NCBI GenBank assembly: GCA_963761175.1
Contig: CAVXFZ010000020.1
Location: 16,231 to 80,230, forward strand
Length of the DNA: 64,000 nt
Direction: 5' to 3'
Origin: an uncultured Actinomycetes bacterium
GTDB taxonomy: Bacteria > Actinomycetota > Acidimicrobiia > IMCC26256 > PALSA-610
The number at the start of each line of letters is the position of its first letter. The first letter of the stretch is position 1. A model generated the notes under the pieces. It worked only from the letters and a program-made list of their open reading frames with translations. It had not been told where the DNA came from and made no database searches. The position numbers and the translations under genes are program-made. This document shows, one piece after another, positions 19,595 to 49,509 of the stretch.

Positions 19595-21518
19595 ATGATC
19601 GACGTCACCGAACGCACGACCGTGCTGGCCGCGCTGCCGCTCTTCGCCGCGTTCGACCGCGACGAGACCGCAGCCGTGGCCACTCACTGCGACGAGCGGT
19701 CGTGCGAGAAGGGCGACATCCTCTGGCACGCGGGTGATCCCGGGAACGAGTTCGTCGTCGTGGTGTCGGGCGAGCTGTCGGTGTGGCGGGGCGGCGACGA
19801 CGAGGTCGTCGCCCGCATCGGACCCGGCGAGTGTCTCGGCGAGATCGCGCTCCTGCTCGACGCGTCGCGTTCCGCGACAGTGAGCTGCTCGCGCCGCGCC
19901 CGACTCCTGGTGCTCACCGGCTCGAAGTTCCAGGAGCTGCTGCGCAGCGATGCGCGCGCACTCGAGTACGTGTCGCAGCTGCTCGCGCGGCGAGTCGTCG
20001 CAACCACGCGTGCACGCGTCGCCGCGCGGGCTTCGACGACGGTCGGCGTCGTCTCCGAAGACCGCACCGCGGGTGCGTCGCTCGTCGCGCGTGCGCTCGC
20101 GGAGCTCACCGCGGATCTCACCGGTGGGCGCGCGCTGTTGGTGGCGATCGGCGACACCGGCAAGCCGCTCGACGAGGCGTTGCAACGCGGGGCGGAGGCG
20201 ACTCGCGAGCTCATCGAGCGCCGCCCCGAACGGGTTGTCGACCGGCTCGCACTCACCACTCCGGAAGGATCCGACCCCGCCCAGCTGAGCCGGCAGCTCA
20301 CCGAGCTGCTCGGCCACCTCGACGGCGGTCATCGCGTCATCGTTCTCGACTTCGCGCTGCACACCGCCGCCACGAGCGCGCTCGTCGCCGCCGCCTGCGA
20401 CGACGCGGTCGCGGTGTCGTACCGCAACCCGGGGCGCGGCATCCGAGGCCGCCCGCCACTCGCGGGTGCTGCGCGTCGTGAACCGCGCGGACTCGCGCTC
20501 GCGGCCGCTCCCGCTGAACCATTGCGAGCCGTTCGTCGTTCCCGACGAACCGGTCCTGCGCACGGCCCATCCCAACGAGCTCGGGGAACGGCTGCGCGCC
20601 AACCCGCGCCTTCCGGCCACGCGCACCCTGAGCCGGCTGGCGCGCAAGGTCTTGCACTCGACCGTCGGCATCGCGCTGGGCGGCGGCGCGGCATTCGGCA
20701 TCTCCCATGTCGGGGTGCTCGAGACGCTCGACGCCGCCGGGATCCCCGTCGACCTGATCGCGGGCACGAGCATGGGATCGATCGTCGGGCTCGGCTACGC
20801 GGGCGGCCTCTTCGGCGCCGACATGCACGAGATCTCGAATCGTCTGAGCAACCTGCCGACTGCGCTCGGCGCGCTCGATGTGTCGATCTCGGGACTCGGG
20901 CTCATGTCGGGGCGGCGCATGGTGAAGACGTTCTCGAAGCTGCTGCCTATCGACACGTTCGAGGAACTGGTGCTCCCGTACCTCGCGGTCGCGACCGACC
21001 TGCGCACCGGCCACGCTACCCGCATCGGGACCGGCCGCCTCGACGACGCCTTTCGCGCGAGCAGCTCGATCCCGTTGCTCTTCGCGCCGGCGGAGCGCGA
21101 CGGCCAGATGCTCGTCGACGGCGCCATGGTCGATCCCGTGCCGGCCGATGTCGCGCGCGAGATGGGCGCCGACCTCGTCATCGCGGTCAACGTCGTCCCG
21201 CAGCTCGACCCCGAGGTCCGCACGCCGCTGTCGAACGCGTTCGGGCGCCTGAACCGGCTCAACCCGCTCGCCTACCTGAACGGAACGGTCAACGCGCCGC
21301 ACATCATCGACGTGCTCATGAACACGCTGACCGCGACGCAGTACGAGCTCGGCAACTTCAAGGCCCTCACGGCCGACGTCTTGGTGAACGTCGACCTCGC
21401 CGACTTCACCTGGATCGACTTCCTCGCGGCACCGGAGATCGTCGAGCGAGGCACGCGCGCGGCGACGGCCGCGCTCCCCGCGATTCGCGCGATGTACGAG
21501 GAGCGGCTCGCGGGCTGA
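19595..21518 (+). CDS. cyclic-nucleotide-binding / patatin-like phospholipase (NTE-type) protein. The frame is broken near 20430-20470 (alternatively two adjacent genes).
   Basis: N-terminal cNMP-binding domain (NEFVVVVSGELSV..GPGECLGEIALL..SRSATV) from ATG 19595. Patatin motifs GGGAAFGISHVG, GTSMGS and DGAMVDPVP lie in the next frame (ORF 20466..21518). The first frame continues only as Arg-rich junk. Confidence 0.75.
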
Positions 21519-21540
21519 AACGGCTCGTACCACGACGGTG

Positions 21541-22938
21541 TCAGTCGGGGTCGGGCGCGGCCTTCTCGAGCTCCGCGACCGCGGCACTCACGTAGCCGAC
21601 GAGGGCCGGAAGGTCGGGTTCGAGATCGGGGCAACTGAGGAACCCGAAGCCGACCTGGTCGAGGTAGCTGACCACGGTGATGTTCAGGCCGACGCCCTCG
21701 ATGAGCGGGCCCATCGGGAACATCTCGGTGACGCGACCACCTGCGATCCACAGCGGGAACTCCGTGCCGCGCACGTTGGAGATGAGCACGTTCGCGACGG
21801 GCGGTACGTAGTCGGCCAACCGCAACCCGGAGACGAGCTGCATGCCGGCCTCGGCGACGCGCGGCGGAACCGCACCCGCGAGCGTCGAGAGCAACTGCCG
21901 TCCGTTCTGCTCGTAGAACTGCTTCGCGACCTCGGCCGACCGCTTCGTCGCCTCGACCCGCGCAACCGGATCGTCGATGTGCACGGGAAGCCCGTAGAAC
22001 ATCGAAGAGAACCGGTTGCCGCCCGGCGCGTCGTCGAGCTCGCGTTCGGACACCGGGACGGCCGCGACGAGACTGCGGTTCGGCAACTCGCCGCGATCGG
22101 CGAGATAGAGGCGCAGCACACCGGTGCACACCGCGGTGAACAGGTCGTTGAGCGTCGAGCCGTACGCGCGTCGCAACTGCTTGAGGCGCGAGAGCTCGAC
22201 CGAGGTGAACTCGACGGCGCGCCGCGCCGACGGCAGGTGGCGGTTCCACGCGAGCCGCGGCGCGGTGAGCGGCAACGCGAGGTCGGCCCGTCCGACCGAC
22301 GACAACGAGCGCGCGACGACGGTGCCGATCTGTGGCACCGACCGCAGGAACGAACCGGCCCAGCGCGCGCCGCCGACGATCGTCTCCTCGACCCGAGCCG
22401 CGGTGTCGAGGGGCGGCTCCGGGACGTGGCGGGGCAGATCGAGCGGGGCGGCGTGCGGCTCGAGATCGAAGAACCCGGCCAGCGTGCCGAACCCCGACGT
22501 GCCGTCGATGACGGAGTGATGCACCTTGCAGATGACCGCGGTGCGGCCGCCTTCGAGGTGCTCGACGAACCACATCTCCCAGAGCGGCCGGTCGCGCCGC
22601 ATCGGGCGGCCGGCGATCGCACCGGCGGCCTTGCCGAGCGCCTGCAGGTCGGCGGGCGGATCGAGGATCACCTGATGGATGTGCGCGTCGACCGCGAGGT
22701 CGGCCTCGTCCTCCCACACGGGGAGCGCGAGGCCGGGGAGCATGCGGAGTCGGCGGCAGAGCGGCGGGACGAGCGGCAGCCGCTCCGCGACGCGATCGCG
22801 CGCGACCTGGTAGTGCTCGCCCGGTTTGATCGCGGGATCCGGATCGATGATCAGGACCGCGAGAACGTTGAGTTGTTGCTCCGGCGTCTCGATCGACAGC
22901 AAGGCTGCGTCGAGGGCCGAGAGTCGCGCGGTACCCAC
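21541..22938 (-). CDS. wax ester synthase/diacylglycerol acyltransferase (WS/DGAT), second copy
   Basis: HHSVIDG active-site motif, N-terminal LSALDAALLSIE. 465 aa. Confidence 0.9.
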   Translation of the reverse strand: MGTARLSALDAALLSIETPEQQLNVLAVLIIDPDPAIKPGEHYQVARDRVAERLPLVPPLCRRLRMLPGLALPVWEDEADLAVDAHIHQVILDPPADLQALGKAAGAIAGRPMRRDRPLWEMWFVEHLEGGRTAVICKVHHSVIDGTSGFGTLAGFFDLEPHAAPLDLPRHVPEPPLDTAARVEETIVGGARWAGSFLRSVPQIGTVVARSLSSVGRADLALPLTAPRLAWNRHLPSARRAVEFTSVELSRLKQLRRAYGSTLNDLFTAVCTGVLRLYLADRGELPNRSLVAAVPVSERELDDAPGGNRFSSMFYGLPVHIDDPVARVEATKRSAEVAKQFYEQNGRQLLSTLAGAVPPRVAEAGMQLVSGLRLADYVPPVANVLISNVRGTEFPLWIAGGRVTEMFPMGPLIEGVGLNITVVSYLDQVGFGFLSCPDLEPDLPALVGYVSAAVAELEKAAPDPD

Positions 22939-23016: not shown

Positions 23017-25272
23017 TCACTCCTCGGGGCGCAAGGACGAGACGCTGAGCGCGCCACGGACCCGGTCGACGGTTCCGGCGGAGTGAGAGAGGCGCCGGCA
23101 CGTCAGCATCGACTCCTTCCACAGCTCGCGTGCGTCGTCGACCGTCGGCTCCACCGGGCCGAACACCGACGCGTCGACGCGCGACGCGAAGTCGCCGAGG
23201 CCGTCGTTCATCCAGGTGATCGCGAGCTCGCGCCGGGTCGCGTCCGGTGGCACGGGGCGACCGAGGTCGCGGAGATGGTCGACGACCTCGTCCCATCCGG
23301 CCGAGATCAGCAGCGCCGGCGTCTCGGCCCGGCGGCGCCGCACCCGCCGGCGGCGCTTCGTCACGAGGATGAGAAGGACGGGCACCGCGAAGAGCAGGAG
23401 CAGCAGAGTGACGGCACCGGCGGCGGCGAAGACGTAGGCGAGATCCCGCCCGCCCGGCGTCGGCTTGCGCTTCGTCGTGCGAGTCGGGTTCTGCGTGCGC
23501 GTCTCGGCCGATCCGACCGCGCCACTGTTCGCGGCGACCTCCGAGTGCGGCGGCTGCGGCGGTTGCTGCGGGCCCGTGACCCGCTGCTTCGGCAGCGGAT
23601 GCGGCGGCGGACGGCGGGACGCGGCGGGGGTGACGTCGTAGGCGACCCAGCCCTGACCGGCGACGGGAATCTCCACCCACGCTTCGACGTCGCCGTAGCG
23701 GTACTGCGCTTGGTTCGGTTCGAGCGTGAGCCCGAGCACGACGCGCGCCGGGATCGCGCGAGCACGCAGCAGGATGGCTGCGGCCGCCGCGTACTGCTCC
23801 GCGTCACCCACCGGCTGTGGATCACGCAGGAACGCGTTGATGCGCGCGAGGAAGTGCCCGGGCGGCGTGTCGTCGGTCGGACCGTCGTCGTAATAGCCCT
23901 TGCGGAACGCGGCCGCGATCGCGGCGGCCTGATCCTGCGCGTTGCTCGCACTCTTCACGATCTCGCCGGCCTTGTCGGCGAAACCGGTGAAGATCGCGGG
24001 TTCGGCAATGGCGGGCTGCGGTGCGATCTCGAGACCGTCGACCGACGGGCGCTTCGGATCGACGGTCGTACGGAGCGTGAAGGAGTCGCCGCGCTGCAGT
24101 CCTCCCGGCACCGCCGCGGTCGCCTGCGCGACGTTGTAACGAAGGTTCGACGCGAGCCGAGTCGCGTTCGGCCCCGCGAAGTCGATTCCGAGCGGCTGAC
24201 CGGCGGTCGGCAGCCATGGGCCCTGCAATCCCTGGATCGTCACCTTCAGGTTCTCGACCGTGCCCTCGCCCCCGCCCGGTAGTTGAGAACCCGCGCGGCG
24301 GAACGCGTCGAGGTCGCCGTTGTCGGCGACGCGCCACACGAGACCGTCGTAGTCGTCCATCACCGCGATGCGCAGGCGCGTCGGTACCCTCACGCCGTCG
24401 ACCTTCAACAGCGGCGTCGACTGCTTGCCCGTCGCGCGGTACTTGCGGAATCCCGCGAGTGGGCTCGGATACTGCGTCGGGTCGAACGGCGACTGGACGC
24501 GATCACGCAGCACGTAGCGCCGGCCGCCGTCGACGAACGGGACGTGACCACCGAGCGCGCCGGCGCCGACCGTGACGACCGCGAGCAGCGCAACGGTCGC
24601 ACCGACGCCTCGTCCTCGCGCGAGCACGCGAGGTCGGGTTCCGCCGCGCCGCACGAGGCCGAGCACGGTCTGCGACCGGCGGAAGAGGACGCCGGCCCAC
24701 AACAGCAACCCGGCGACGAGGAGCCCCGCCTCCACGTACAACGAGCCTGGGTGATCGGTGCCGACGAGCACACCGAGACCGAGCAGCGCGATCGGCGGTA
24801 CCGCGGCCAGGAACGACACGCGAGGCGCGCGCAACAGCAACATCGACGCCGACGCACCGAGGAAACCGCACACGTAGGGAACCGCGAGGACGTGGCCGAT
24901 GTTGCCGACCGGCGGCAGCGTCGTGACGAGCGTCCGCCATCCGTGCACGCTCCCGCTGAACACGGACCCGACGTGCTCGGGGGTCGGCACGAAACTGCTC
25001 GCACCCTCGCCGCGCACCGTCGCGAGCGGGCCGACTACCCCGAACGCGACCACCGCACCCGCGACTCGCGCCCAGATGTTGATCCGCAACGACGAGACCC
25101 AGACCCAGTAGGCAGTCGCGAGGAGGGTCCCGCCCGCGCCCGCCACGAAGAACGCGGTACCGGAGAACGCGGCGCGGAAGCCGGTGAGCGCGAGGAGATT
25201 CGCGGCGACGACCGCAAACACGTCGCCGCGATCGACCTGGTTGCGCCGCGCGGGCGCGAGCACCGTGCTCAC
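23017..25272 (-). CDS. polytopic membrane protein with a transglutaminase-like core whose catalytic residues are substituted
   Basis: GTG 25272 overlaps the DUF58 stop (GTGA). About six N-terminal TM helices. The core GDAEQYAAAAAILLRARAIPARVV..GDVEAWVEIPVAGQGWVAYDVTP aligns to the G-x-C-E-x-F-A / HAW-x-E / D-P-T pattern with Ala for Cys and Glu for His. One further TM helix lies near the C-terminus. Confidence 0.8.
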   Translation of the reverse strand: MSTVLAPARRNQVDRGDVFAVVAANLLALTGFRAAFSGTAFFVAGAGGTLLATAYWVWVSSLRINIWARVAGAVVAFGVVGPLATVRGEGASSFVPTPEHVGSVFSGSVHGWRTLVTTLPPVGNIGHVLAVPYVCGFLGASASMLLLRAPRVSFLAAVPPIALLGLGVLVGTDHPGSLYVEAGLLVAGLLLWAGVLFRRSQTVLGLVRRGGTRPRVLARGRGVGATVALLAVVTVGAGALGGHVPFVDGGRRYVLRDRVQSPFDPTQYPSPLAGFRKYRATGKQSTPLLKVDGVRVPTRLRIAVMDDYDGLVWRVADNGDLDAFRRAGSQLPGGGEGTVENLKVTIQGLQGPWLPTAGQPLGIDFAGPNATRLASNLRYNVAQATAAVPGGLQRGDSFTLRTTVDPKRPSVDGLEIAPQPAIAEPAIFTGFADKAGEIVKSASNAQDQAAAIAAAFRKGYYDDGPTDDTPPGHFLARINAFLRDPQPVGDAEQYAAAAAILLRARAIPARVVLGLTLEPNQAQYRYGDVEAWVEIPVAGQGWVAYDVTPAASRRPPPHPLPKQRVTGPQQPPQPPHSEVAANSGAVGSAETRTQNPTRTTKRKPTPGGRDLAYVFAAAGAVTLLLLLFAVPVLLILVTKRRRRVRRRRAETPALLISAGWDEVVDHLRDLGRPVPPDATRRELAITWMNDGLGDFASRVDASVFGPVEPTVDDARELWKESMLTCRRLSHSAGTVDRVRGALSVSSLRPEE

Positions 25273-26490
25273 AATCCACCCGCCGATCGCAGCAGCGGCT
25301 CGAGCTCGTCGAGGCGGCCGGCGTCGATCACGGTGGTGACGCCCACCGGCGCGCACTGCGACACGTCGCCCTCGCGCGCGGATCGACACCACGCGGGTGC
25401 CCGGCGGGAACTGCTCGGCCGCGAGCCGCAGCACGTGCACGTCGACCCGCGATCCGGTCACGAGCACGATCACGCTCGCGGCGCGGAGGCGTCCGCGGCT
25501 CTCCATCACCGTGTCGGCGATGCTCCGGGCGCTGGAGCTCATCTCGACGCGGCAGAGCCCGTCGAGGAACGTCGACGCGTCGATGGCGGGGACCTCGTCG
25601 GGGCCGGCGATACACGACACTGACTGGCGGTCGCGCAGCCCCCGTGCACCGAGCGAGGCGGCGATCGAGACGGCGAGCTCGAACTCGTCGTCGCCGGCGT
25701 ACTCGTGACGCGCGGTCGCGATCACGACGGCCAGCTCCCAGCGGCGAGTGTCGATGTACTGGCGCACCATCAGCTTCCCGACGCGCACCGACGTCCGCCA
25801 GTGAACGTGCCGGCGATCGTCGCCGGGTTCGTACTCGCGCAGGGTGTGCAGCTCGACGTCGCTCGCGGAGATGTCGTTCGTGCTCAGGCCCTCGAGGTCG
25901 CGGATCCAGCCGGAACCGATGCCGCCCAGCGCCACGGTGCGCGGGTGCACGAAGAGCTCGACGCTGCGAGTCCATGCCACCTCGCGCCGCATCAGGCCGA
26001 GCGGGTCGCCGCGCACCGAGCTCACGGGGCCGACCGCGACGACGCCGCGCCGCGTCGTCGGGATCTCGAACTCCTCGCGGTGTGCGCTGCCGATCGCGAG
26101 CGAGGGCACGTCGGCGCGCACGACGGCGCCGCCGACCGGCGCCTCGAGCCGGAACGGGAGGATCCGGCGGCCGGTGTCGTTGGTCGCCTCGATCGACCCC
26201 TCGGCGCTCTGACCGGCGACGACACGCGCGGGCTCGAGGGCGATCGCCACCGCGATCCGGTCGCGGCCGAGCATGAACAGCGACGCGATCACGAGGACCA
26301 CCGCGCAACCGGCGACGACCGCGCCGAACTCGACCCAGTGCAGCCGCCACGCGACGAACCACGCGACGAGGGCGAACGCCGCGACCATGCGACCGAAGCG
26401 CGTCGTGAGCGCGCCGACGCGTCGAAGCTGTTCGGCGACGCGCGCCAACCGGCGAGCGAGACGCGTGCGGAGGGCCACCGCGGGAACCAC
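25269..26490 (-). CDS. DUF58 (vWA-like) protein. The frame is broken in a CG repeat near 25372-25380.
   Basis: DUF58 signature LREYEPGDDRRHVHWRTSVRVGKLMVRQY. GTG 26490 lies 9 nt after the moxR stop. The plausible C-terminus EGDVSQCAPVGVTTVIDAGRLDELEPLLRSAGGL-stop is one base out of frame with the body. Confidence 0.8.
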
Positions 26491-26498
26491 GAGCAGTC

Positions 26499-27467
26499 CT
26501 ACGACTCGGCTCGTGCGCGGGGCGGCGCGACGTCCATCAGTGTCCGCGCGATCACCTGCTCGGGCGTGACGCGTGCGAACTCGGCCTCGGGCGTGAGCAA
26601 GAGGCGGTGCGCGAGCACCGGCTGCGCGAGCTCTTTCACGTCGTCGGGAACGACATAGGTGCGACCGTGCGCGACTGCCCACGTCTTCGCGCCCCGCACG
26701 AGGGCGAGGCTCCCACGCATGCTCACGCCGAGCTTCACGTCGGAGGCGCGGCGGGTCTCCTCCGCGAGCAGGTTCACGTACCCGAGAATCGCGGCGTCGA
26801 CGTTCACCTCGGTTGCGATCCGGGCCATGTCGATGACGGCCTGCGAACCGATGAGCTCGGTCACGTGGGAGGCGCGGTCGCGGTTCGAGGCGTCGGCGAG
26901 CAGCGTGACCGCGGTGTGATGATCGGGATAGCCCAGGCTCATCCGCATCAGGAACCGGTCGATCTGCGCTTCCGGGAGTCGGTAGGTGCCGGCCTGCTCG
27001 ATCGGGTTCTGCGTCGCGATCACCATGAACGGTTCGCCGACCGGATAGCCGACGCCGTCGACGGTGACAACGCCCTCCTCCATCACCTCGAGCAGTGCCG
27101 ACTGCGTCTTCGGCGAGGCGCGGTTGATCTCGTCCGCGAGCACGATCGTCGCGAACACCGGCCCCTTGTGGAACTCGAACGCGCCGGAGCGTTGGTTGTA
27201 GATCGTCACACCGGTGACGTCGCTCGGCAACAGGTCGGGGGTGAACTGGATCCGGCTGTGCGAACCCTTCACGGTGTTGGCGATCGCCTTCGCCAGCGAC
27301 GTCTTCCCGGTACCCGGCACGTCCTCGATGAGGAGGTGACCGTCGGAGAGCAGGCAGGTGAGCGCGAGCATCACCGCGTTGCGCTTCCCCAGGATCGCGC
27401 CCTCGACATTGGTGGCGAGCTTGTCGAACGCTTCGGCGAACCAACTCGCTTGTTCGTTGGTGATCAT
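26499..27467 (-). CDS. moxR: MoxR-type AAA+ ATPase
   Basis: Walker A VPGTGKTSLAKA, Walker B VLADEINRASPKTQSALLEVMEE, QNPIEQAGTYRLPEAQIDRF. AGGAG lies upstream of ATG 27467. Confidence 0.95.
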   Translation of the reverse strand: MITNEQASWFAEAFDKLATNVEGAILGKRNAVMLALTCLLSDGHLLIEDVPGTGKTSLAKAIANTVKGSHSRIQFTPDLLPSDVTGVTIYNQRSGAFEFHKGPVFATIVLADEINRASPKTQSALLEVMEEGVVTVDGVGYPVGEPFMVIATQNPIEQAGTYRLPEAQIDRFLMRMSLGYPDHHTAVTLLADASNRDRASHVTELIGSQAVIDMARIATEVNVDAAILGYVNLLAEETRRASDVKLGVSMRGSLALVRGAKTWAVAHGRTYVVPDDVKELAQPVLAHRLLLTPEAEFARVTPEQVIARTLMDVAPPRARAES

Positions 27468-27518
27468 CGAGCTCCTACGAGACGGATGAGACCCGCCGGG
27501 CCGATCCCGGCCCGACGG

Positions 27519-30500
27519 TCATGGCCAGACATAGTCGGACGACTGATACATGCCCGCGCTGCCGCTCAGCACGGCGTAGACGGTGCGGCCGGACACCGCG
27601 TTCGCGCAGTATCCGGTGGACGACCATGACGGTCCGGTGATGGTGATCGGCTGGTTGATGCCATAGTCGCCGCTGGTGCGATCGAAGCACTGCAACGTGT
27701 ACGAACCGACGGGGATCCCGGTCTCGCTGAAGCTCCACCACCGGCACGCGGGATCGCCCCCGCACTCCGTCGGTGGCGTCGCGGCACCGGCCGCCACCGT
27801 GAAGGTCACCGGTGCGGGTCCGGTCGTCGCGCAGCCGTGCTGCGACTCCGGACCCATGACATCGAGGTTGTTGACCGCGATCACCGTGACGCAGTACAGC
27901 GTGTCGTACGCGGCGTAGTCAGCCTGCACGGTCGTCGCGGTGACGTTGCCGATGCGCGCGACGACGTAGTACTGGATGCCGCAGCCGCCGCAGCCGTCGC
28001 TCGGCGGCGCCCAACTCCACGTGATCGTGAGCCCGTCGGCGACACCCGTGGGCTTCGCCACCTGACCCGGCGCGCCGTTCGGCGTTGCCGACACCGACTG
28101 CGAATTCGTCTCGCAGAACCGGCGGGTCGGGACGCTCGCCGGTACCGCACAGGAGACGACCGTGAACTGGTAGCTCTGCCCGACAGTGAGGCTCGCGGGC
28201 GTCGACCAGCCGCTCGTGATCTCGATGGGAGCACTGACGTCGAGTCCGGGCACTGCCGGGGTCACCGCGGTGAGGAACACCTTCGACTGCAGATCGGCCG
28301 GACTCCCCGGGGCGAGCTTGCCGGGCGTGAAGGTGAGCGAGAGCTGCTGCGCGGCGTTCGCCGTCGCGGCGAGGCCGGTGACGGCCGACGGCGGCCCGTA
28401 CGTGGTGAACGACACGGTCGCGCTCACGTACCTCGCGCAGCTCGACAGCGCGCCGTGACACGCGCGCGCGACCAGCGTGTTCGCGACCCCGATCCGGATC
28501 TGGTACGTGTGACCCTGACTCGGGTTCGAGAAGTTGTAGAAGCCCGGATTCGCGGCCGGGTGCGGCGTGCCGCCGTCGATCATCACGAAGTACTGCAGGT
28601 TCGCGGGGTCGTCACCGCCCGTCGCCGCGGTGTCGGCCGACGAGCTGGGCGTCGACCACGACACGTCGACCGAGTCGTTCACGTTGAGGCTCTCACTCAC
28701 GACCGGCGTCGCAATCGAAGTGGGAACTCCGAGCGGCCGCGCCACCGGTGTCGTCACCCCGTCGGACTGTTCGTTCGACGCGTTCCGCGTCCTGATCGTG
28801 AACGCGTACGGCGCGCCCGTCGTGAGCCCGGTGATCCGGGTGCCCGCCGCCGGTGCCGCCACGCTCGCCCGGAGATGCGAACCGTCGTAGATGTCGTAGT
28901 AGCGGATCGCGCTCCCCGAGTAGCGGATCGGCGGCGTCCAGGAGAGATCGATCGTCGTGGGCGAGGTGAGGTCGAAGGTCGCGCTCGCGCTCGCGACGGC
29001 GGGCGGGGCGACGTCGTAGTGCTGCGACCGCGACGCCGGCCCCCACGGTCCGGGCTCCCCGAAGACATCGACCGCGCGGACCCGGAACGAGTAGGCCTGC
29101 GCGAACGAGAGCCCGGAGAACGCGGAACGCGGTCCGCTGCCGGCGCAGGTGCGGTCGGCGCGATCACCGCCCGACCAGTTCACCTGGTAGTGGTCGATCG
29201 CCGCACCGCGCGGGAACGCCGGGCCCGACGACCAGTCGAGCGCGAAGTACGACGTGTTCGTCGACGCATCGGTACGCGCGCTCACGCTGGGTGCGACCGT
29301 CGGCCGCGTCGGCGAGCCGTAGACGGACACGCTGACGGTCGCGACCACCCGCCGCGCGGTCTCGCCGGTCGCGTCGCCGACCGTGACGAAGATCTGCGTG
29401 CTCCCGGTGAAGGAACCGCTCGGCGCAAAGCGCAGCAGGCCGCCGACAGTCGTGTCCCAGGTGACAGTGCCGGCCGAATGGCTCACCGATGCGGTGACGA
29501 TGTGAAGCCCCTTGCGCGCCGGGTCCGTGACGTGTGCGAGCACGTCGATGGTGTGCGCGCCCGACCCCTGCTTGAACGGTCCGGCCGTGAAGCTCGCTGC
29601 CTGCGGCAGCGGCGGTTCCGTGACGCGGATCTGGAAGAGCGCGGCGCGCGACACGAGCCGGCCGTTCGTGGCGCGCAGCACGACCGAACCAGTGCGACCC
29701 GACGCGTCGAACGAGGCACCGACGTCGAGGGTGTTCCCGCTCAGCGCTGCGGTCACGCCGGCCGGAAGCTGCTTGCCGAGGAGCTCGAAACGCTCTTTAC
29801 CGGTCGGCGCCTTGTTCCCGACGAGGTGCGCGGGGAGCGACACCAACACGTGCTGGCCCGGGAGCACCGAGATCTCGCTGCCCTCGAGCACCGGCGGCTG
29901 GTTGCCGCTCACCGTCACGAAGAAGATGCCCTCCGCCGACTGGGTCCCGTCGGTCACCTGGTACACGACCGAGCCGTAGCCGGGAGCGTTCGCCGCCGGC
30001 GTGAACGTGACGCGCCGGCCGGAATCGACCCGCGCGGTGCCCCAGCGCGACCCGACGATCGTCGTGACGCGCAGGCTCGTGCCCGGCGCGTGCGTGTCGT
30101 TCGCGGTGACGTCGACGGTGACGGGGTGCCCGACGCTCGTCGTGGCGTTGTCGGTGACGGCCACGGGCGGCGCGTCCTTCGGGTTCCCCACCGCCATCTG
30201 CACGAACGCGCACGAGGAACTGTGCTCAGGGTTCTCGATGCAGTACGACACGAGCCGCGACCGCGTGCCCACAGGGACAACGATCGAGTCTCCGGCGACG
30301 GTGTAGTTCCGGTTGAACGACGGCAGGATCGTGAGCTGGTCGCGGCCGTACGCGGGATCGGAGTCGTTCTCGAGCACGGGGACACGCACGGACGCCTGCG
30401 GATCGGGAGACCGCACACCGGGGACGATGTCGTCGACCGCCACGGGGACGTCGAGTGCCGTGTGGTCGACCGTGACGATCACCTGCCCGAGGAACGGCGA

Positions 30501-33500
30501 GGGCGCATTGATGCCGTCGGTGATCGCGTAGAAGAACGCGATCTGCGTGCCGTCGGCCATCCCGGCGGGCACCGATACCTCGACCGTCCCCTTCCCGACG
30601 ACAGTCGGCTGGGGAGCGTTCTCGGGCTTGTCGGGACGTGATGCGATCGATACCGGGTCGCCGTCGGCGTCGACGTCGTTGGCCGTGACCGGGATGCGAA
30701 TCTTCGTCCCCGGCCGCGCCCGAACCGCATCGTTCTCGGGAATCGGCGGCGTGTTCAGCAGCGGCGGCGCGGACACCGCGATGAGCACGGTGCCCTGGCC
30801 GAGCGCGCCGTGGTCGTCGCGCAGCCAGTACGTGAACATGTCGGTTCCGCCGTGACCTTGGTCGGCCGGATCGGCGCGGTACGCGACGGTCGCGCCTTCG
30901 ATGCCGGTGATGACACCCCGACTCGGGGGCGCGCCGAGCCCGACGAGGGTCACCGGGTCGTTCTCGGGATCGACGCCGAGCAACGGGATCGTCACCGAGG
31001 TCGACGAGCCCGCGAACACGCGTGCAACGAGCGGCCGTGGCTGCGGCGGCTGGTTCTCTTCGGTGTCGGCGACGACGTTGATCGTGAGCTCGCCCGTGCT
31101 CGTCGCCAACCCGTTCGTGGCGTTGTAGTTGATCTTCACGGGGCCAGGAACGGCCGGCGCGACGAACCGCAGCGCGTTGCCGTGCGCGTACAGGAAGCCC
31201 TGACGCGTGGGGTCGAGCTTCGTGGCGCCTTCGAGCGTCGTGAACGGCACCGTCGGGTCGAGGGACAGCGCGGCGCCGTTGGGGTCGAAGTCGTTCGCGA
31301 GGACCGGGATCTCCGCGGCCCCGTTCACGCGCACCGTGACCTGGTCGTCGTGCACGACCGGCGGTTGCTGGTCGCTCACGGTCGACGCCGGGAGCACGGT
31401 GACCGATCCCTGGGCGGTCGCGATCCCGTCGGTGACGGAGTAGTCCAGGTGCGCCGGCGCCGTGAGCCGAGTCGTGGCGCTGATGCTGAGCTTCGCGTGG
31501 TCGACGACCGCGACCCGCAGCCCGGCAGGAACGTTGTCGATCCCATCGACGAAGAGCACGTCGTCATCTGCGTCGCTGTCGTTGTTCAGCACCCCGACGG
31601 TCGTGCTGCCGTCGCTTCGGAGCTGGGCGGTGTCGGGTACCGCGACCGGTGGGTGGTTCGGCCCACCCTTGGTGACCCGCACCCGCACCCGCCCCACCGC
31701 CGCACTCACGCCGTCGGTCATCAAGTAGGTCGCAGTGAAGTCGCCGACGACCGTGGGGGTGAACAGGAACTGCCCGTTCGGGAGGAACCGGAAGCGCTGG
31801 CCCGGAATCGGCGTGACCGACACGAGCGTGAGCAGGCTGCCGCTCCCCGCGCTGTCGTTCGCGAGCACGTCGACGGCGAGCTCACGCGTCCCCGACGCGG
31901 TCCGCGCGTTCAGCGACGTCGTCCCGAAGTCGGACGCCGCGATCGGTCGCACGACCCCGGCTTGCACCGTGACCTCGAGCAGGCCGTCGGTCGACTCGCC
32001 GCCGGGATGCTCGTCGGTCGCGCTGTACACGACCCGGATCTTCTGATCGACGCTCGCGTGGGCCGGCGCGGTGACCGTGATCGCGCCGTTCGCGCGCACG
32101 GTCGGTTGCACCGCCGCGGGCGACCCGTCGATGTGCGCGCTCAGCAGACGGATCGGGTCGCCCTCCCGATCGGTGTCGTTGGCGAGCACGTTGAAGGTGA
32201 CGCTGTGCCCCCGCTGCACCGTCGCCTGGTCGGGGTTGAGCTTCGGAGGAGCTTCGTCGTTCGCGCCGTAGACGTGCACCGTGACCGTGCCCGAGACCTC
32301 GCGCGTGCCGTCGCTCACCGTGTAGTTGACGAGCGCGGCCGTCTGGTTCCCTGCGGGCGTGAAGAGCACGGCGCGGCCGTCGTCGGCGATCACAACGGAG
32401 CTCCCCGACGCGGCGTCGGTGCTCGCGGCCACGATCGCGAGGACGCGGCAACGGCTCGGGTCGACGACGTGCTGGATCACCGGGATCACCACCGAAGCGC
32501 CGACCCGCACACCGGCATCGAACGGGCGCGTGGTCGGGCTGCGTGTGTCGCGGCAGTTGGCCGTCGCCGGCGTGCCGTTCGATTCGCTCGATGCACTCTT
32601 GGTCGTCTGGCCGAACGCGGTCTGCCAGGCGGTCGGACCGAGCACCGCCGGCGGGTCGAACGCGACCCACGTGCCGTCGAGCTCGTCGTTCAGCGCGGCG
32701 CGGCCGCGGTTGACTCGCCAGGTGACCGGCAGCGGCGTCGTCGCGTTCGGATCGATCTGGCCTGCAACCGGCTTCTTGCCCGGGCAGATCTGCACGTACC
32801 GACCGTGCTCCGTCCACGCGCCGTACACGCACCCCGACAGCGCGACGGGCGCGATGGGCGCGCCGTAGGAGCCGTCGGCCACCGCGGCCCGCTGGAGCAG
32901 CCCGACGTGGCCGTCGCGCAACGACACCGTCGCCAGCGCCTGCGACGACGCGACGAGAACGGTGCTGCCGCGCCCGCTGGGTTGCTGGAGCGCAGTCGCC
33001 GACGTGAGGTAGTCGGGAAGGGTGAAGGTCCGGCCGTTCGAGGTCAGCAGCACGTGACGGGTGGCGTCGAGGATCACGGCTTCGTGGCCGACGGCGGTGA
33101 TCTGCGGAGCGGCGTCACCACCGATCGCGCGCAGCCGGGTCCGCGTATGGTGCGGGTTCGGGCCGCTTCCCGAGATCGTGTCGAGCAGCCCGTGGGCGGG
33201 GTCGTAGGCGAAGGTCGTGCCGTCGTCGCCGACGACGACCGCGCTCTGGCGGCCGATCGTGAGGTACGGCTTCGGCGCGGTCGCACCCGCGTAGCTCTGG
33301 GACCCGAGCGCCGACGCGTCGGTGACCCACAGCGATCCCGAGCTCGGCGCGAAGACCGCGCCGCGATCACCGCCGAGCCCGACGTACGCGTCTGCGGGGA
33401 GCGGCTGCGCGGCCTGCACGCTCGCCTGCGCGACGGCAACCTGCGCCAGCATGTTCGTCGCGTTGCTGTAGATGACGACGTTCGCGTCGTCCTGCACGAC

Positions 33501-33755
33501 GTCGGGGGTCGCGAGCTTGCTCGCATCGACCGCGGGCGCCATGTCGACCGACTGGATCTCGTTGTTGAGGCGCCCGATCGGCGAGCCGGCGACGCTCTCG
33601 CGGGTACCCCAGATGCCGCTGTCGTGCAGTTCGTACTTCGTCACGTGGTAGCTGTCGGAACGGATCGCGAGCGCGACGGCCCCGGCGAGCAGCGCCACGA
33701 CCACGGCGAGCGCGACGAACCGGCGAATGCGGTCGGTGGGTGGGCGGCGTTCCAC
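27519..33755 (-). CDS. giant (2078 aa) membrane-anchored surface protein with cadherin-like Ca-binding Ig repeats and FN3-like repeats
   Basis: A single uninterrupted ORF. N-terminal anchor FVALAVVVALLAGAVALAI. Recurring NDTDREGDP, NDSDADDD, NDFDPNG, VDPENDP, NDVDADGDP and ENDSDP motifs. Several FN3-like units (e.g. TIDLSWTPP, LTITWSWAPP). A Cys-containing C-terminal domain. Confidence 0.85.
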   Translation of the reverse strand: MERRPPTDRIRRFVALAVVVALLAGAVALAIRSDSYHVTKYELHDSGIWGTRESVAGSPIGRLNNEIQSVDMAPAVDASKLATPDVVQDDANVVIYSNATNMLAQVAVAQASVQAAQPLPADAYVGLGGDRGAVFAPSSGSLWVTDASALGSQSYAGATAPKPYLTIGRQSAVVVGDDGTTFAYDPAHGLLDTISGSGPNPHHTRTRLRAIGGDAAPQITAVGHEAVILDATRHVLLTSNGRTFTLPDYLTSATALQQPSGRGSTVLVASSQALATVSLRDGHVGLLQRAAVADGSYGAPIAPVALSGCVYGAWTEHGRYVQICPGKKPVAGQIDPNATTPLPVTWRVNRGRAALNDELDGTWVAFDPPAVLGPTAWQTAFGQTTKSASSESNGTPATANCRDTRSPTTRPFDAGVRVGASVVIPVIQHVVDPSRCRVLAIVAASTDAASGSSVVIADDGRAVLFTPAGNQTAALVNYTVSDGTREVSGTVTVHVYGANDEAPPKLNPDQATVQRGHSVTFNVLANDTDREGDPIRLLSAHIDGSPAAVQPTVRANGAITVTAPAHASVDQKIRVVYSATDEHPGGESTDGLLEVTVQAGVVRPIAASDFGTTSLNARTASGTRELAVDVLANDSAGSGSLLTLVSVTPIPGQRFRFLPNGQFLFTPTVVGDFTATYLMTDGVSAAVGRVRVRVTKGGPNHPPVAVPDTAQLRSDGSTTVGVLNNDSDADDDVLFVDGIDNVPAGLRVAVVDHAKLSISATTRLTAPAHLDYSVTDGIATAQGSVTVLPASTVSDQQPPVVHDDQVTVRVNGAAEIPVLANDFDPNGAALSLDPTVPFTTLEGATKLDPTRQGFLYAHGNALRFVAPAVPGPVKINYNATNGLATSTGELTINVVADTEENQPPQPRPLVARVFAGSSTSVTIPLLGVDPENDPVTLVGLGAPPSRGVITGIEGATVAYRADPADQGHGGTDMFTYWLRDDHGALGQGTVLIAVSAPPLLNTPPIPENDAVRARPGTKIRIPVTANDVDADGDPVSIASRPDKPENAPQPTVVGKGTVEVSVPAGMADGTQIAFFYAITDGINAPSPFLGQVIVTVDHTALDVPVAVDDIVPGVRSPDPQASVRVPVLENDSDPAYGRDQLTILPSFNRNYTVAGDSIVVPVGTRSRLVSYCIENPEHSSSCAFVQMAVGNPKDAPPVAVTDNATTSVGHPVTVDVTANDTHAPGTSLRVTTIVGSRWGTARVDSGRRVTFTPAANAPGYGSVVYQVTDGTQSAEGIFFVTVSGNQPPVLEGSEISVLPGQHVLVSLPAHLVGNKAPTGKERFELLGKQLPAGVTAALSGNTLDVGASFDASGRTGSVVLRATNGRLVSRAALFQIRVTEPPLPQAASFTAGPFKQGSGAHTIDVLAHVTDPARKGLHIVTASVSHSAGTVTWDTTVGGLLRFAPSGSFTGSTQIFVTVGDATGETARRVVATVSVSVYGSPTRPTVAPSVSARTDASTNTSYFALDWSSGPAFPRGAAIDHYQVNWSGGDRADRTCAGSGPRSAFSGLSFAQAYSFRVRAVDVFGEPGPWGPASRSQHYDVAPPAVASASATFDLTSPTTIDLSWTPPIRYSGSAIRYYDIYDGSHLRASVAAPAAGTRITGLTTGAPYAFTIRTRNASNEQSDGVTTPVARPLGVPTSIATPVVSESLNVNDSVDVSWSTPSSSADTAATGGDDPANLQYFVMIDGGTPHPAANPGFYNFSNPSQGHTYQIRIGVANTLVARACHGALSSCARYVSATVSFTTYGPPSAVTGLAATANAAQQLSLTFTPGKLAPGSPADLQSKVFLTAVTPAVPGLDVSAPIEITSGWSTPASLTVGQSYQFTVVSCAVPASVPTRRFCETNSQSVSATPNGAPGQVAKPTGVADGLTITWSWAPPSDGCGGCGIQYYVVARIGNVTATTVQADYAAYDTLYCVTVIAVNNLDVMGPESQHGCATTGPAPVTFTVAAGAATPPTECGGDPACRWWSFSETGIPVGSYTLQCFDRTSGDYGINQPITITGPSWSSTGYCANAVSGRTVYAVLSGSAGMYQSSDYVWP

Positions 33756-33802
33756 TCAGACTCCGGAGCCTGAGAACGCCGGGCCGCCCGTCGCCGCGAG
33801 CG

Positions 33803-34810
33803 TCACACCCGCGCCGAAGCGCCGGGCGGGTGGGCGCTTCGGCCGGCGCGCTCGTCGTCCGTGACCACGACCGCGACCTGGTCCCCGAAGAAGATCTTGT
33901 CGCCCGCGGGCACGATGACCCGTTCGAGCGGTCGGACCCGCCGCGCGGTCTGCGGATCGGAGCCGACCAGCGTGCCCGTGGCCGAGTACTGGTCCTCGAC
34001 CATGATCTCACCGAGATGGGCGCGCAGCGCGAAGTGCGTCTCGGAGACGGCGCCGGTGGCGCCGTCGACGCGGAACCATTCGACCGCGCGCCCGTCGGCA
34101 TCGCGCCGTACAGGATCGCGGCCCACGAACACGACACCCATGACGCGCACACGGTCCCCGTTCTCGAACTGCACCTCGGGCAGCTCGAGCACGCGATCGG
34201 CACCGCGCCGGCGGCGACGGCGCGTCGGCTCACGCTCGGACTCCGCGCGCTCCAGCGCGACAAGGTCGATGAGCCCGTCGCGCTCGGTGACGAGCGTGGG
34301 GCGCAACGACCGCACCGGGAGGAAGTCGTCGTCGCCGCCCCGCTCCGTCTCGTTCAGCTCCGACGACGGCACGAGCGCGGCCTCGAGCTCCTCGAAGCTG
34401 CGCTGCAACTTCAGGTAGACGTCGCGCAGGAGCTTGCCGGTGAGGATCACGCGCACGCTGGCGCGTTCCTCGCTGACGCGCATCGTGCACGCCTCGGTGC
34501 GCTTGATGAGCAGGATCCAGTAGCCGGCACCGAGCAGCCCCACGGTGAGTGCCCAGCCCGTGACGGTCGCCCACTTCGGCCGGTACACACGCGTGAACTG
34601 GTAGACGCCGTCGCCGAGCGTCGAGGAGCGGTAGATCTCGGTGCCGCAGATCGTGCGGACCGCGAGTTCCGCGGCGGAGACGCGATCCAGCCGGCGCAGC
34701 TCGATGGTCGTCGAAACGCCTGCTCCGGCGCCCGCCCTGGTCACTCGCACAGCCACACATCCCAGCGTCGCAGGAAGTGGAGCGTAGAGAGTCGGCGCGT
34801 CACCGGTCAA
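33803..34810 (-). CDS. FHA-domain membrane protein
   Basis: C-terminal FHA pattern VFVGRDP..VSETHFALRAHLGEIMVEDQYSATGTLVG, plus a central TM helix (WALTVGLLGAGYWILLI). The start (TTG 34810) is uncertain. Confidence 0.75.
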   Translation of the reverse strand: MTGDAPTLYAPLPATLGCVAVRVTRAGAGAGVSTTIELRRLDRVSAAELAVRTICGTEIYRSSTLGDGVYQFTRVYRPKWATVTGWALTVGLLGAGYWILLIKRTEACTMRVSEERASVRVILTGKLLRDVYLKLQRSFEELEAALVPSSELNETERGGDDDFLPVRSLRPTLVTERDGLIDLVALERAESEREPTRRRRRRGADRVLELPEVQFENGDRVRVMGVVFVGRDPVRRDADGRAVEWFRVDGATGAVSETHFALRAHLGEIMVEDQYSATGTLVGSDPQTARRVRPLERVIVPAGDKIFFGDQVAVVVTDDERAGRSAHPPGASARV

Positions 34811-34835: not shown

Positions 34836-36489
34836 TCACCAGCCGCATGATCTTAACTCTCCCGCGCTCGCGTCGACAGCAGCAACGGACTCCATCGACC
34901 TCGACGCTCGTGGTCCGCGCCGGATCGGTCCCCCGCGCTGCGCCATGCCGATCGTGGGAGCACGATCGTTCGGCACCGGCACCCCGAAGTAGTCGCGTGC
35001 CGGCGCACCGGGCAGCAGCGTCCCCGCGCCGATCGCCGGCGAATCCCCGCGCAGCCGGAAGCCCGACCCGACCCGGAGGCGACCCTCGCCCCGGCGGCTC
35101 GGATCGACGAAGTGCGGGTCGCCCACCACCGCGTTGGTGCCCGACGGCGGGAGCCCCGAGAAGAGGTTGTTCGTGCAGTGGTCGCCGCAGGGCAGCGGAT
35201 CGGTCTGCGGGCTCGTCGCGACGACGAGGTTGTTCGCGAACACGAAGTCGCCCGGCGCGAACAGCGTCGACTGCGGGATGAGCTCGAGCGTTACGAGCGG
35301 CTGCGGCGCGACGAAGGTGTTGTCGTAGAAGCGCAGTCCGTCGAGCGTGCCGATGTTGCCGCTCTGGATGTCGCACGGTGCGTCGTTGAACGACGTCGCA
35401 TCGTCGACGCTCAGGTTGTACCTGACCTCCGCGGCGCGCGGTTCGCCGTCGGTGCAGAGGAGGATGAAGCCGCCGGCGTTGTCGTGGCTGTAGTTGTACT
35501 GGACGACCGTTCCGTCCTGGTTGTAGTCGATGTCGTAGCCGGTGCCGTCGCAGCCGTTGAACTGCATGCCCGACACTTCGTTGTACTGGATGAGTGTCGA
35601 GTTGGCGCCGAAGGTCCAGATGCCCGCGTTGCACACCGGGTTCGGCCCGTACCACGGCGTACCGGCGCGGTTGCCGTCGACGACGACGTTGTGCTCGAGC
35701 ACCGCGCCGTTCGTCCCCGTTGCGACGATGCCGTCGCCGGCGAGGTGCTCGAGCCGGTTGCCGCGCACGTGGACCCGCGTCGACCCCTGCGGCCACGGCT
35801 CGCCCGCGCGGTCGGCTGCCACCGGACGCGCCCGCGATGAAGATGCCGCTGCGGCTCACGTTCGCGATGTGATTCGCCACGATCTCGACACCGTCGAAGC
35901 GACCACCGGCGGCGGCGTCGACCTGGATTCCACCGCTGCCACCGAAGTCCTTGCTCAGATCGCCGGCGACGTCGTGGATCGACAACCCGCGCACCACGAC
36001 GTCGGAGACCTCGATCCCGTCGGCCACGAGATGGACGCCTCGACGGCGTTGCGCCGTCGCGCCCGGGTTGCTCACGTCGAGGGACTCGAGCACGACGTGG
36101 TCCACGTTGCGCAACAGCACCCCGTCCTCGCCGCTGCCGACGATACGGGGCAACGATCCGAAGCCGTAGGCGCCGATGACGATCGGCGCGTGCTCGGATC
36201 CCGCGCCCTGCGGCGCCAGCGCGCCGGTGCAGGTGGTCGCGCGGTGGAACCGCACCTGGTCGCCCGGCGCGAGCACGACCGCGTTCACGTCGGCGATCGC
36301 ATTGAACGGCCGCCAACGCGAGCCGTTGCCGTCGGTGGTGGCGCGGCAGTCGACGTAGAACGTGTGCGCGCCGTCCGCCCGGGGCGCAGGTGCCGCGCCC
36401 GCGGCGGTCGTCGCCGTTGCGGCGGCACCTCCGAGCAACGCGATCACCGAGACGAGTGCGATCCGACGCCCGCTCGTTCCTCGAGCCAC
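34836..36489 (-). CDS. secreted right-handed parallel beta-helix (pectate-lyase-fold) protein. The frame is broken near 35818-35827.
   Basis: GTG 36489 with GGAGAGGAGGG upstream, and a signal peptide. Beta-helix repeats (VLLRNVDHVVLESLDVSN.., VVVRGLSIHDV, IVANHIANVSRSGIFIAG) continue in the next frame as VAADRAGEPWPQGSTRVHVRGNRLEHLAGDGIV..YNYSHDNAGGFILL. Confidence 0.7.
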
Positions 36490-46015: not shown

Positions 46016-46060
46016 CGCACGTCCTCCCTCTCCACGCGGACGCGTCCTCGGCCCGCGCGT

Positions 46061-47341: not shown

Positions 47342-47430
47342 CGCCGCTTCCCCCACCTCGAGCGCAAAGTGGAGCGCAGACTAGCGACCATCGGAGCCCC
47401 GCGCCCGGGCCCGCTCGGGGGCGATCCGCC

Positions 47431-49449: not shown

Positions 49450-49509
49450 CTCTCCACCCCCCGGTGTAGAACGCGGCCCACGCTAGCGGCGCACGACGCT
49501 CGGCGGCGC

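Follow-up and report, generated by a model that had tools for sequence, protein, structure and literature searches.

We analysed a stretch of 64,000 nt (the window in what follows) from a soil-metagenome actinobacterium (GenBank assembly GCA_963761175.1, contig CAVXFZ010000020.1, positions 16,231 to 80,230), which has a G+C content of ∼70%, and focus here on five co-directional genes on its minus strand, at 23017-34810. Read in the direction of transcription, these encode an FHA protein, a giant exported filament protein, a MoxR ATPase of the AAA+ class, a DUF58 (vWA-like) protein and a polytopic membrane protein related to the transglutaminase TgpA (the TgpA-like protein). An initial annotation of the window had described these five genes and proposed that they form a functionally linked, uncharacterised cell-envelope system. 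The Pfam assignments came out as described there and the functional linkage holds up, but several other parts of that proposal need revision.

The FHA gene (33803-34750) encodes 315 residues and matches Pfam FHA at E=3e-4, just above the cut-off. It is followed by the gene for the giant (27519-33755; 2078 residues), the MoxR gene (26499-27467; 322 residues; Pfam AAA_3 at 1e-61 and AAA_lid_2 at 4e-24), the DUF58 gene (25269-26490, starting at GTG 26490; Pfam DUF58 at 1e-7) and the TgpA-like gene (23017-25272; 751 residues; Pfam Transglut_core at 8e-14). The gaps of 47 nt between the FHA and giant genes and of 51 nt between the giant and MoxR genes are as first annotated, as is the GTGA at 25269-25272 in which the DUF58 and TgpA-like genes overlap; the gap between MoxR and DUF58 is 8 nt rather than 9 (TAG at 26499-26501, GTG at 26490), a miscount by one that had concealed the frameshift in DUF58 described below. 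A consensus scan found neither terminators nor sigma-70 consensus sites in the intergenic gaps. Four terminator-like matches were all intragenic, at the level expected from shuffling.

The start of the FHA gene had been placed at 34810, at the 5' limit of the full open reading frame (ORF; 33803-34810). The call in the source database, together with alignment to homologues, makes GTG 34750 the most likely start. TTG 34810 itself sits within a promoter-like element noticed by eye on the minus strand (34781-34810), which consists of TTGACC (34810-34805), an 18-nt spacer and TACGCT (34786-34781). This putative promoter would lie in the 85-nt gap between the stop of an upstream beta-helix gene (34836) and the start at 34750; it scores under the threshold of the consensus scan.

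Conservation of the cluster

The initial annotation had looked to related genomes for linkage of the giant and FHA genes with the MoxR-DUF58-TgpA triad, and such linkage is indeed conserved, in relatives down to ∼25–30% identity. Close homologues of the FHA protein (52–61% identity) occur in metagenome-assembled genomes (MAGs) of Acidimicrobiia and Actinomycetota, and every close relative with enough flanking DNA (loci L001, L002, L005 and L013) keeps the order FHA-giant-MoxR-DUF58-TgpA, with differing flanks. MoxR is 83–87% identical in these four loci and 52–72% identical in distant ones. The giant aligns over its full length and collinearly, with 71–73% identity in L002, L005 and L013 and 26–28% in L008, L009, L010 and L019.

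A profile of the FHA family matches 333 representative clusters at E≤1e-10, and in many of them the match takes in the N-terminal domain as well as the FHA domain; a genome scan with a narrower FHA alignment returned two loci. In L008 and L009 a family member of 24–27% identity lies directly upstream of a collinear giant of ∼2100 residues, followed by MoxR, and further upstream stand genes for a PP2C phosphatase, a second FHA protein, a Ser/Thr kinase and a protein of ∼240 residues; kinase and PP2C genes are present throughout L008-L011. The family member of L006 lies just 3' of MoxR-DUF58-TgpA, and in the metagenome loci L018/19 and L022/23 giant-MoxR-DUF58-TgpA is followed by an FHA protein gene. 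Cultured Micrococcales and Amycolatopsis carry the module as well, often beside genes for a Ser/Thr kinase, PP2C and Esx components (EccC/WXG100). Searching from the TgpA-like protein, we found the order PP2C-Ser/Thr kinase-giant-MoxR-DUF58-TgpA-FHA-FtsK/SpoIIIE in cultured Homoserinibacter and Ser/Thr kinase-...-giant-MoxR-DUF58-TgpA-FHA in cultured Litorihabitans, while Amycolatopsis has response regulator-histidine kinase-FN3 protein-MoxR-DUF58-TgpA, with a kinase gene on the opposite strand. The neighbours are thus kept in at least 12 independent loci, down to ∼25% identity. Since many independent contigs, with flanks unrelated to one another, show this order again, we conclude that the linkage of the five genes is far beyond chance.

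The related loci hold some further features. ATPases of the FtsK/SpoIIIE (EccC-like) type adjoin FHA or TgpA genes in L006 (9273-14200), L007 (3-2237) and L010 (13216-15921), and in one of them, after which a WXG100-like gene comes next, an FHA domain stands at the N-terminus. The ∼240-residue protein, which has no Pfam match, recurs in L006 (5385-6125), L008 (9070-9765), L009 (9091-9825) and L011 (571-1311), placed between the kinase gene and the FHA-family or giant gene, and is absent from the window. It is 54–59% identical across loci whose other cluster proteins are ∼25–35% identical, making it the most conserved part of the extended cluster, and it possibly corresponds to the 'hypothetical' gene of the PFNA operon discussed below. 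Between the giant and MoxR genes of L008 (17647-18618) lie two small ORFs (184 and 134 residues), which duplicate the C-terminal part of the giant itself with 63% and 50% identity. In L009 another MoxR gene and another giant-like gene (Cadherin/Big_9) stand at 1-1177 on the minus strand, divergent and upstream of the kinase block, so that this genome has two adjacent modules, much like Esr1 and Esr2 in Schaalia.

Features of the five proteins

The giant is built of nine Big_9, five Cadherin_4, four Cadherin_5 and two fn3 domains by Pfam, with an NCBIfam tandem-95 repeat; for the other four cluster proteins there is no specific NCBIfam family. Residues 9-35 (33651-33731; RRF-VALAVVVALLAGAVALA-IRS), preceded by a positively charged stretch and with a hydropathy of 2.93, form a signal peptide or signal anchor, by which the protein is exported. 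A globular head follows (residues ∼36-445; 32421-33650), with a conserved Cys pair (C309, C324), then an array of Ig-like repeats (residues ∼446-1960; 27876-32420), Big_9 and cadherin-like first and FN3 after, and a C-terminal Cys-containing domain (residues ∼1961-2078; 27522-27875) whose pattern is kept in orthologues, including the short FN3 protein of Amycolatopsis. The head of ∼400 residues is conserved from Acidimicrobiia-like MAGs to Bifidobacterium, and conservation, of a purifying kind, is even along the whole protein. Neither the head nor the C-terminal domain matches a Pfam family at E≤10, and the giant has no LPXTG sortase motif and no C-terminal transmembrane helix. We considered a phosphothreonine docking site in its short cytoplasmic tail and rejected it, as the tail is not conserved.

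MoxR retains both its Walker A (GTGKT, residues 52-56) and Walker B (LADE, residues 110-113) motifs, and belongs to MoxR proper: AAA_3 scores 206.9 bits against 32.8 bits for bpMoxR.

The TgpA-like protein had been called transglutaminase-like, which is right for its fold; the catalytic Cys and His, however, are absent. In an AlphaFold2 (AF2) model (pLDDT 82.7) some eight N-terminal helices are followed by an extracytoplasmic beta-sandwich and transglutaminase fold, a last transmembrane helix (residues ∼612-647), a poly-Arg stretch and a cytoplasmic helical tail, and a TgpA_N domain is seen in orthologues. Foldseek matches the ectodomain to P. aeruginosa TgpA (6G4H and 6G49) at E=1e-9, with a TM-score (target) of 0.65 for 6G4H. 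Given the poly-Arg stretch after the last transmembrane helix and an ectodomain fold like that of periplasmic TgpA (PMC3507681), the topology is that of TgpA. The active site, read from a HMMER alignment to 6G49 and a MAFFT alignment of 56 homologues, is degenerate (23629-23808): Ala491 in GDAEQYA replaces Cys, Glu530 in VEAWVE replaces His, and Asp546 in YDVT is kept. There is not one Cys in the extracytoplasmic domain. Only 1 of the 56 homologues keeps the catalytic Cys, the other 55 lacking Cys and His alike, and conservation extends to the replacement motif, G[DNT][ASGD]EQ[YF]A. From these alignments we judge the family to be an old, selected pseudo-enzyme; here the protein cannot act as a Cys-dependent enzyme, and cross-linking by it is unlikely.

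In the cytoplasmic tail of the TgpA-like protein (23227-23241) the Thr of A-T-R-R-E is invariant in all 56 homologues, and Tgm of B. adolescentis has it as well (T-R-N-E). This Thr might cap a helix at its N-terminus or serve as a phospho-acceptor for the FHA protein; T-R-x-E occurs in the Cys-containing homologue too and fits a helix N-capping box, which counts against its being an FHA target.

The FHA protein had been described as a membrane protein, yet a hydropathy scan finds no clear membrane-spanning helix in it. Its AF2 model (135 homologues, mean pLDDT 85) has a compact N-terminal alpha/beta domain (residues 1-125), which has no Pfam family at E≤10, a low-confidence linker (126-190) containing five Thr, and an FHA fold (190-300; 33851-34183). 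The last is recognised by Pfam and by alignment as well as by Foldseek, which matches it to the FHA domains of GarA, OdhI and FhaA. The phosphothreonine-binding residues GR (209-211) and S..H (236-239) are retained. Inserted in the N-terminal domain is a hydrophobic helix-turn-helix hairpin (residues 59-82, WATVTGWALTVGLLGAGYWILLI; 34505-34576), flanked by the motifs RxxRPxWA and KRTExC, which are conserved across the family. Because the strands before and after the hairpin join one sheet (pLDDT >95), the model predicts that the protein is cytoplasmic and held monotopically at the membrane by this hairpin.

The DUF58 protein begins with a membrane hairpin of two transmembrane helices, followed by a cytoplasmic body; at the position of the vWA DxSxS motif this subfamily reads IATAR/LSLAT, by an alignment judged by eye, and the motif is not conserved. 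The gene had been taken as intact. As written, its body shares the reading frame of the TgpA-like gene and its own stop is absent; the conserved last 36 residues of the protein (ending in GVTTVIDAGRLDELEPLLRSAGGL and a stop), which are kept in the 407-residue orthologue of L002, are found in another frame. DNA alignment to L001, L002 and L013 places the frameshift at 25372-25373, where two bases are missing between 25373 and 25372, directly after the CGCGCGCG run (25380-25373). Past this point translation continues in the TgpA-like frame with no stop until 23017, so that the sequence is a single DUF58-TgpA ORF of 1157 residues, which the source protein database also called (P0172). When repaired, DUF58 aligns with the 407-residue orthologues across all 407 columns.

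The upstream gene for a secreted, right-handed beta-helix protein (34836-36489, minus strand) is also split between two frames, near 35800-35815, with the signal peptide and N-terminal half in one and the half matching Pfam Beta_helix in another. This second apparent frameshift within 13 kb makes an assembly (indel) error a plausible origin of the DUF58 deletion, although it may be a real mutation. No contig from the public runs spans 25343-25480, the runs holding this DNA being low-depth soil metagenomes only; an exact-pattern scan of metagenome contigs, allowing 0–2 extra bases at the site, found no sister contig, and the source contig was also unmatched.

Relation to known systems and proposed function

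The cluster had been called uncharacterised. Systems of this kind are in fact already known, from two lines of work. The first concerns the PFNA operon of Bifidobacterium, with the order pkb2-fn3-aaa-atp-duf58-tgm and optionally prpC-hyp-fha (PMC8430577, PMC6803598). Its genes are co-transcribed, and the kinase Pkb2 phosphorylates the PFNA MoxR in vitro (PMC8430577). Using the B. adolescentis Tgm and FN3 sequences in the supplementary alignments of the PFNA paper, we found that the TgpA-like protein matches Tgm by blastp at E=7e-50 (26% identity over 732 residues), and that the first 652 residues of FN3 align collinearly to residues 11-578 of the giant at E=4e-23. Tgm lacks the Cys and His too, its motifs reading GDSEQYA and DVTAWVE (GD[AS]EQYA and DVxAWVE in common). 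These alignments establish that the cluster of the window is orthologous to PFNA, the giant to FN3 and the TgpA-like protein to Tgm. The two share the co-directional order giant-MoxR-DUF58-Tgm, a giant of ∼2000 residues and, in the extended operon, an FHA gene. They differ in their first gene, which is the species-specific kinase gene pkb2 in PFNA and the FHA gene here, in the lack of prpC from the window, and in their hosts, a gut commensal and a soil organism. The PFNA authors state that bifidobacteria alone have the operon (PMC10688814), a claim for operon and FN3 alike that the cluster of the window contradicts.

The second is the epibiont sensing and response (Esr) pathway of Schaalia odontolytica (Wang et al., bioRxiv, Sept 2026, PMC13622651). 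Here EsrA, a filament exported through Sec, has a beta-propeller of the WD40 class at its N-terminus and 14 Ig-like repeats, and is accompanied by a MoxR, a vWA protein, the transglutaminase-like EsrD, the kinase EsrE, the phosphatase EsrF, and EsrG, which has a variable N-domain, a disordered linker with a phospho-Thr and an FHA domain at the C-terminus (PMC13622651). Deletion of esrD releases EsrA into the supernatant, while deletion of esrA abolishes Thr phosphorylation of EsrG and the transcriptional response to Saccharibacteria (PMC13622651). Judged by architecture and by the relatives in Actinomycetales, the parts correspond: a filament sensor, MoxR, a vWA-like protein, a transglutaminase-like anchor and an FHA output. 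The giant is EsrA-like in being exported with many Ig-like repeats, the TgpA-like protein is EsrD-like, and the FHA protein, as modelled, is EsrG-like in its N-domain, low-confidence Thr-containing linker and C-terminal FHA domain. Of 3502 Esr loci, 40% adjoin esx genes (PMC13622651), and the EccC-like and WXG100 neighbours in L006, L007 and L010 fit this; there are no Esx genes within the window. Unlike in Schaalia, the FHA gene comes first here, its product has a hydrophobic membrane hairpin in the N-domain where EsrG1 is described as pseudophosphatase-like, and the transglutaminase fold lacks Cys and His, which sits badly with covalent anchoring.

The reading that we favour, and think probable though far from certain, is that the cluster belongs, in a compact and kinase-less form, to the Esr/PFNA family of actinobacteria, whose sensing modules span the envelope, and that it signals from the outside in. 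It builds on the homology, synteny, topology and loss of catalytic residues observed here. Several points weigh against it. The kinase and phosphatase that the definition of Esr requires are absent from the 64 kb: with the kinase and PP2C of L008 as blastp queries, no ORF in any of the six frames of the window was matched at 1e-4, and Pfam found neither among the flanking genes. Esr is reported to be essentially confined to the class Actinomycetes, whereas the nearest named relatives of the window are Acidimicrobiia and Actinomycetota MAGs. The likeness to the Schaalia proteins is one of architecture, not of direct alignment, and would suggest rather than establish orthology with Esr. The head of the giant is a candidate beta-propeller sensor, unproven, with weak internal repeats (hhalign E=0.001 at a shift of ∼94 residues). 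In this clade the STNGT motif of the FHA domain reads SATGT, without its customary Asn. As written, the DUF58 gene carries a frameshift, and the module may be impaired. Lastly, we found no public RNA runs holding the cluster's DNA.

In the mechanism that we propose, the direction of signalling is borrowed from Schaalia, and the protein contacts and a kinase in trans are inferred from topology and from the Esr experiments. The TgpA-like protein would display its transglutaminase-fold domain outside the cell and hold the filament at the surface. With the Cys/His nucleophile pair missing, this ectodomain most likely binds the filament and does not cross-link it. On the cytoplasmic side of the TgpA-like/filament complex, membrane-tethered DUF58 and cytoplasmic MoxR would dock; when the filament changes, for instance on meeting a ligand or a second cell, they would convert this to a signal in the cytoplasm. 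This signal would be relayed to Ser/Thr phosphorylation and read by the FHA protein, a phosphorylation-dependent output or adaptor held at the membrane by its hairpin, with a disordered Thr-containing linker. The involvement of Ser/Thr signalling, part of the first proposal, draws support from the kinase, PP2C and extra FHA genes in clusters elsewhere, though the window has no kinase; the kinase and phosphatase encoded in-cluster by other actinobacteria would act in trans here. The likely role would be surface sensing that leads to a protective response, rather than host binding.

A bolder version of this, possible but in our view doubtful, is that the Esr/PFNA module has a greater age and a wider spread than the literature allows, predating the split of Acidimicrobiia-like lineages from Actinomycetes, with a core that needs no dedicated kinase in cis and with an ancient pseudo-enzyme, its 'transglutaminase', as a non-covalent receptor or anchor for the filament. 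In that case the FHA protein with its hairpin anchor would represent an output class of its own, localised at the membrane, and the read-through from DUF58 into TgpA might even be a fusion of natural origin.

A different account follows the initial annotation, in which the AAA+/vWA pair matures the surface protein under kinase control: MoxR, DUF58 and the TgpA-like protein, as a dedicated chaperone or assembly machine, would mature, insert, anchor or remodel the giant from the inside out, governed by Ser/Thr phosphorylation that the FHA protein reads. MoxR ATPases are chaperone-like, the genes are tightly linked, and the PFNA authors, who saw MoxR phosphorylated, propose that it folds FN3 (PMC8430577). 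The release of EsrA on esrD deletion further indicates that the transglutaminase-like protein acts on the giant (PMC13622651). The ripA-ripB-moxR1-Rv1480(DUF58)-Rv1481(vWA) locus of M. tuberculosis likewise has exported-protein genes directly upstream of MoxR-DUF58, with MoxR implicated in handling the exported protein encoded upstream (PMC12067865): moxR1 lies downstream of ripAB, and MoxR1 is reportedly needed for RipA export (PMC12067865, citing PMC4810496). Its third gene, however, encodes a vWA membrane protein rather than a TgpA-like one, its clients are NlpC/P60 hydrolases, and it has no FHA gene. What tells against such a purpose is that in Schaalia neither FHA-protein phosphorylation nor any of the transcriptional response survives loss of the filament (PMC13622651), which puts the giant upstream rather than downstream of the kinase and makes the filament the sensor in an outside-in flow, in which the kinase does not govern the maturation of an adhesin. 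Moreover, MoxR is cytoplasmic, whereas the bulk of the giant is extracellular and its short cytoplasmic tail is not conserved. Maturation is the less supported account of what the system is for, and we hold it to be unlikely; since esrD is needed to retain EsrA, anchoring and sensing may nevertheless coexist.

That the giant is simply a constitutive surface fibril, a wall-spanning spacer or a cell-cell or substrate adhesin held by the TgpA-like protein, with MoxR, DUF58 and the FHA protein tuning its amount and no sensing of threats, seems to us quite improbable. Adhesins typically contain repeats of the Big_9, cadherin-like and FN3 kinds, the even conservation along the giant and the module's presence in free-living soil actinobacteria would suit a fibril, and Bifidobacterium FN3 reportedly contributes to adhesion (PMC6803598), but the persistent association with kinase, PP2C, FHA and Esx genes, like the Schaalia genetics (PMC13622651), points to signalling. 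Far less probable again is a host-immune interface in which the FN3 protein binds host cytokines in commensal-host communication. A B. longum FN3 fragment does bind TNF-alpha in vitro (PMC10688814, PMC8430577), yet orthologous clusters occur in the soil actinobacterium of the window, Microbacteriaceae, Litorihabitans, Amycolatopsis and many environmental contigs, so that the cluster is neither Bifidobacterium-specific nor host-specific, and its distribution contradicts such a role as the general function. Mere juxtaposition of a generic triad with unrelated adhesin and FHA genes is scarcely credible, for although the triad also occurs without a giant, as in P. aeruginosa PA2875-2873 (PMC3507681), the shared neighbours amid changing flanks refute it.

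Two other comparisons help to place the cluster. In P. aeruginosa PA2875-PA2874-tgpA, a co-transcribed MoxR-DUF58-TgpA unit, TgpA is periplasmic, catalytically active and essential (PMC3507681). The triad, its order, the TgpA topology and the ectodomain fold are those of the window, but P. aeruginosa TgpA retains a Cys-His-Asp triad and in-vitro transglutaminase activity, and the unit has neither a giant nor an FHA partner. The ternary conflict systems of MoxR, vWA and beta-propeller proteins (Kaur, Burroughs, Iyer, Aravind 2020, PMC7159879) similarly couple a MoxR+vWA pair to a sensor, and the window's MoxR gives its weak match to their bpMoxR. It is nevertheless far better matched by AAA_3, the DUF58 partner has no evident DxSxS, and Pfam finds no effector or toxin domains among the cluster's flanking genes. 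The Esr authors note that Esr clusters were not detected in the survey of those systems (PMC13622651).

The window itself thus holds a homologue of a just-characterised system, with a DUF58 gene that is possibly broken. What is new in it is the kinase-less, FHA-first form, its occurrence in an Acidimicrobiia-near lineage apparently beyond the reported range, the hairpin-bearing N-domain of the FHA protein and the frameshifted DUF58 gene. Beyond the window, it is new that PFNA can be equated with Esr and with a module found across the phylum, and that the transglutaminase is a conserved pseudo-enzyme. The Esr preprint makes no mention of PFNA, Acidimicrobiia or catalytic residues (PMC13622651), and the two literatures, which do not cite one another, are here joined with each other and with a wider set of free-living Actinomycetota. 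This wider distribution undercuts the view of PFNA and FN3 as unique to bifidobacteria and specialised for host cytokines. The MoxR-DUF58-TgpA triad, long an orphan, gains a conserved partner in the giant filament, and with the nucleophile lost in this lineage, retention of the filament should be non-covalent. If the module is indeed as old and broad as the bolder version has it, both the covalent-anchoring model and the host-cytokine model for Bifidobacterium would be revised.

Genes flanking the cluster

The cluster is flanked on its 5' side by the beta-helix protein gene and on its 3' side by an unrelated WS/DGAT gene; elsewhere in the window the genes are respiratory, lipid and sugar-dehydrogenase ones. 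Directly downstream (20289-22938) lie a patatin-like phospholipase gene on the plus strand and the WS/DGAT wax-ester synthase gene on the minus strand, divergently arranged. The latter follows the TgpA-like stop by ∼80 nt on the same strand, and read-through transcription is possible.

On the other side of the cluster, a gene on the minus strand (37709-39034) encodes a secreted protein of 441 residues without a significant Pfam family, in which about six tandem repeats of ∼40 residues (GYWLVASDGGIFxFGDAxFxGSTGG...) precede a stretch rich in Ser/Thr and a tail that contains Cys. Further upstream, also on the minus strand, two paralogous glucose/sorbosone dehydrogenase genes abut in tandem (44732-46060 and 46061-47380), and the next gene upstream of this pair is ceramidase-like (47431-49482).

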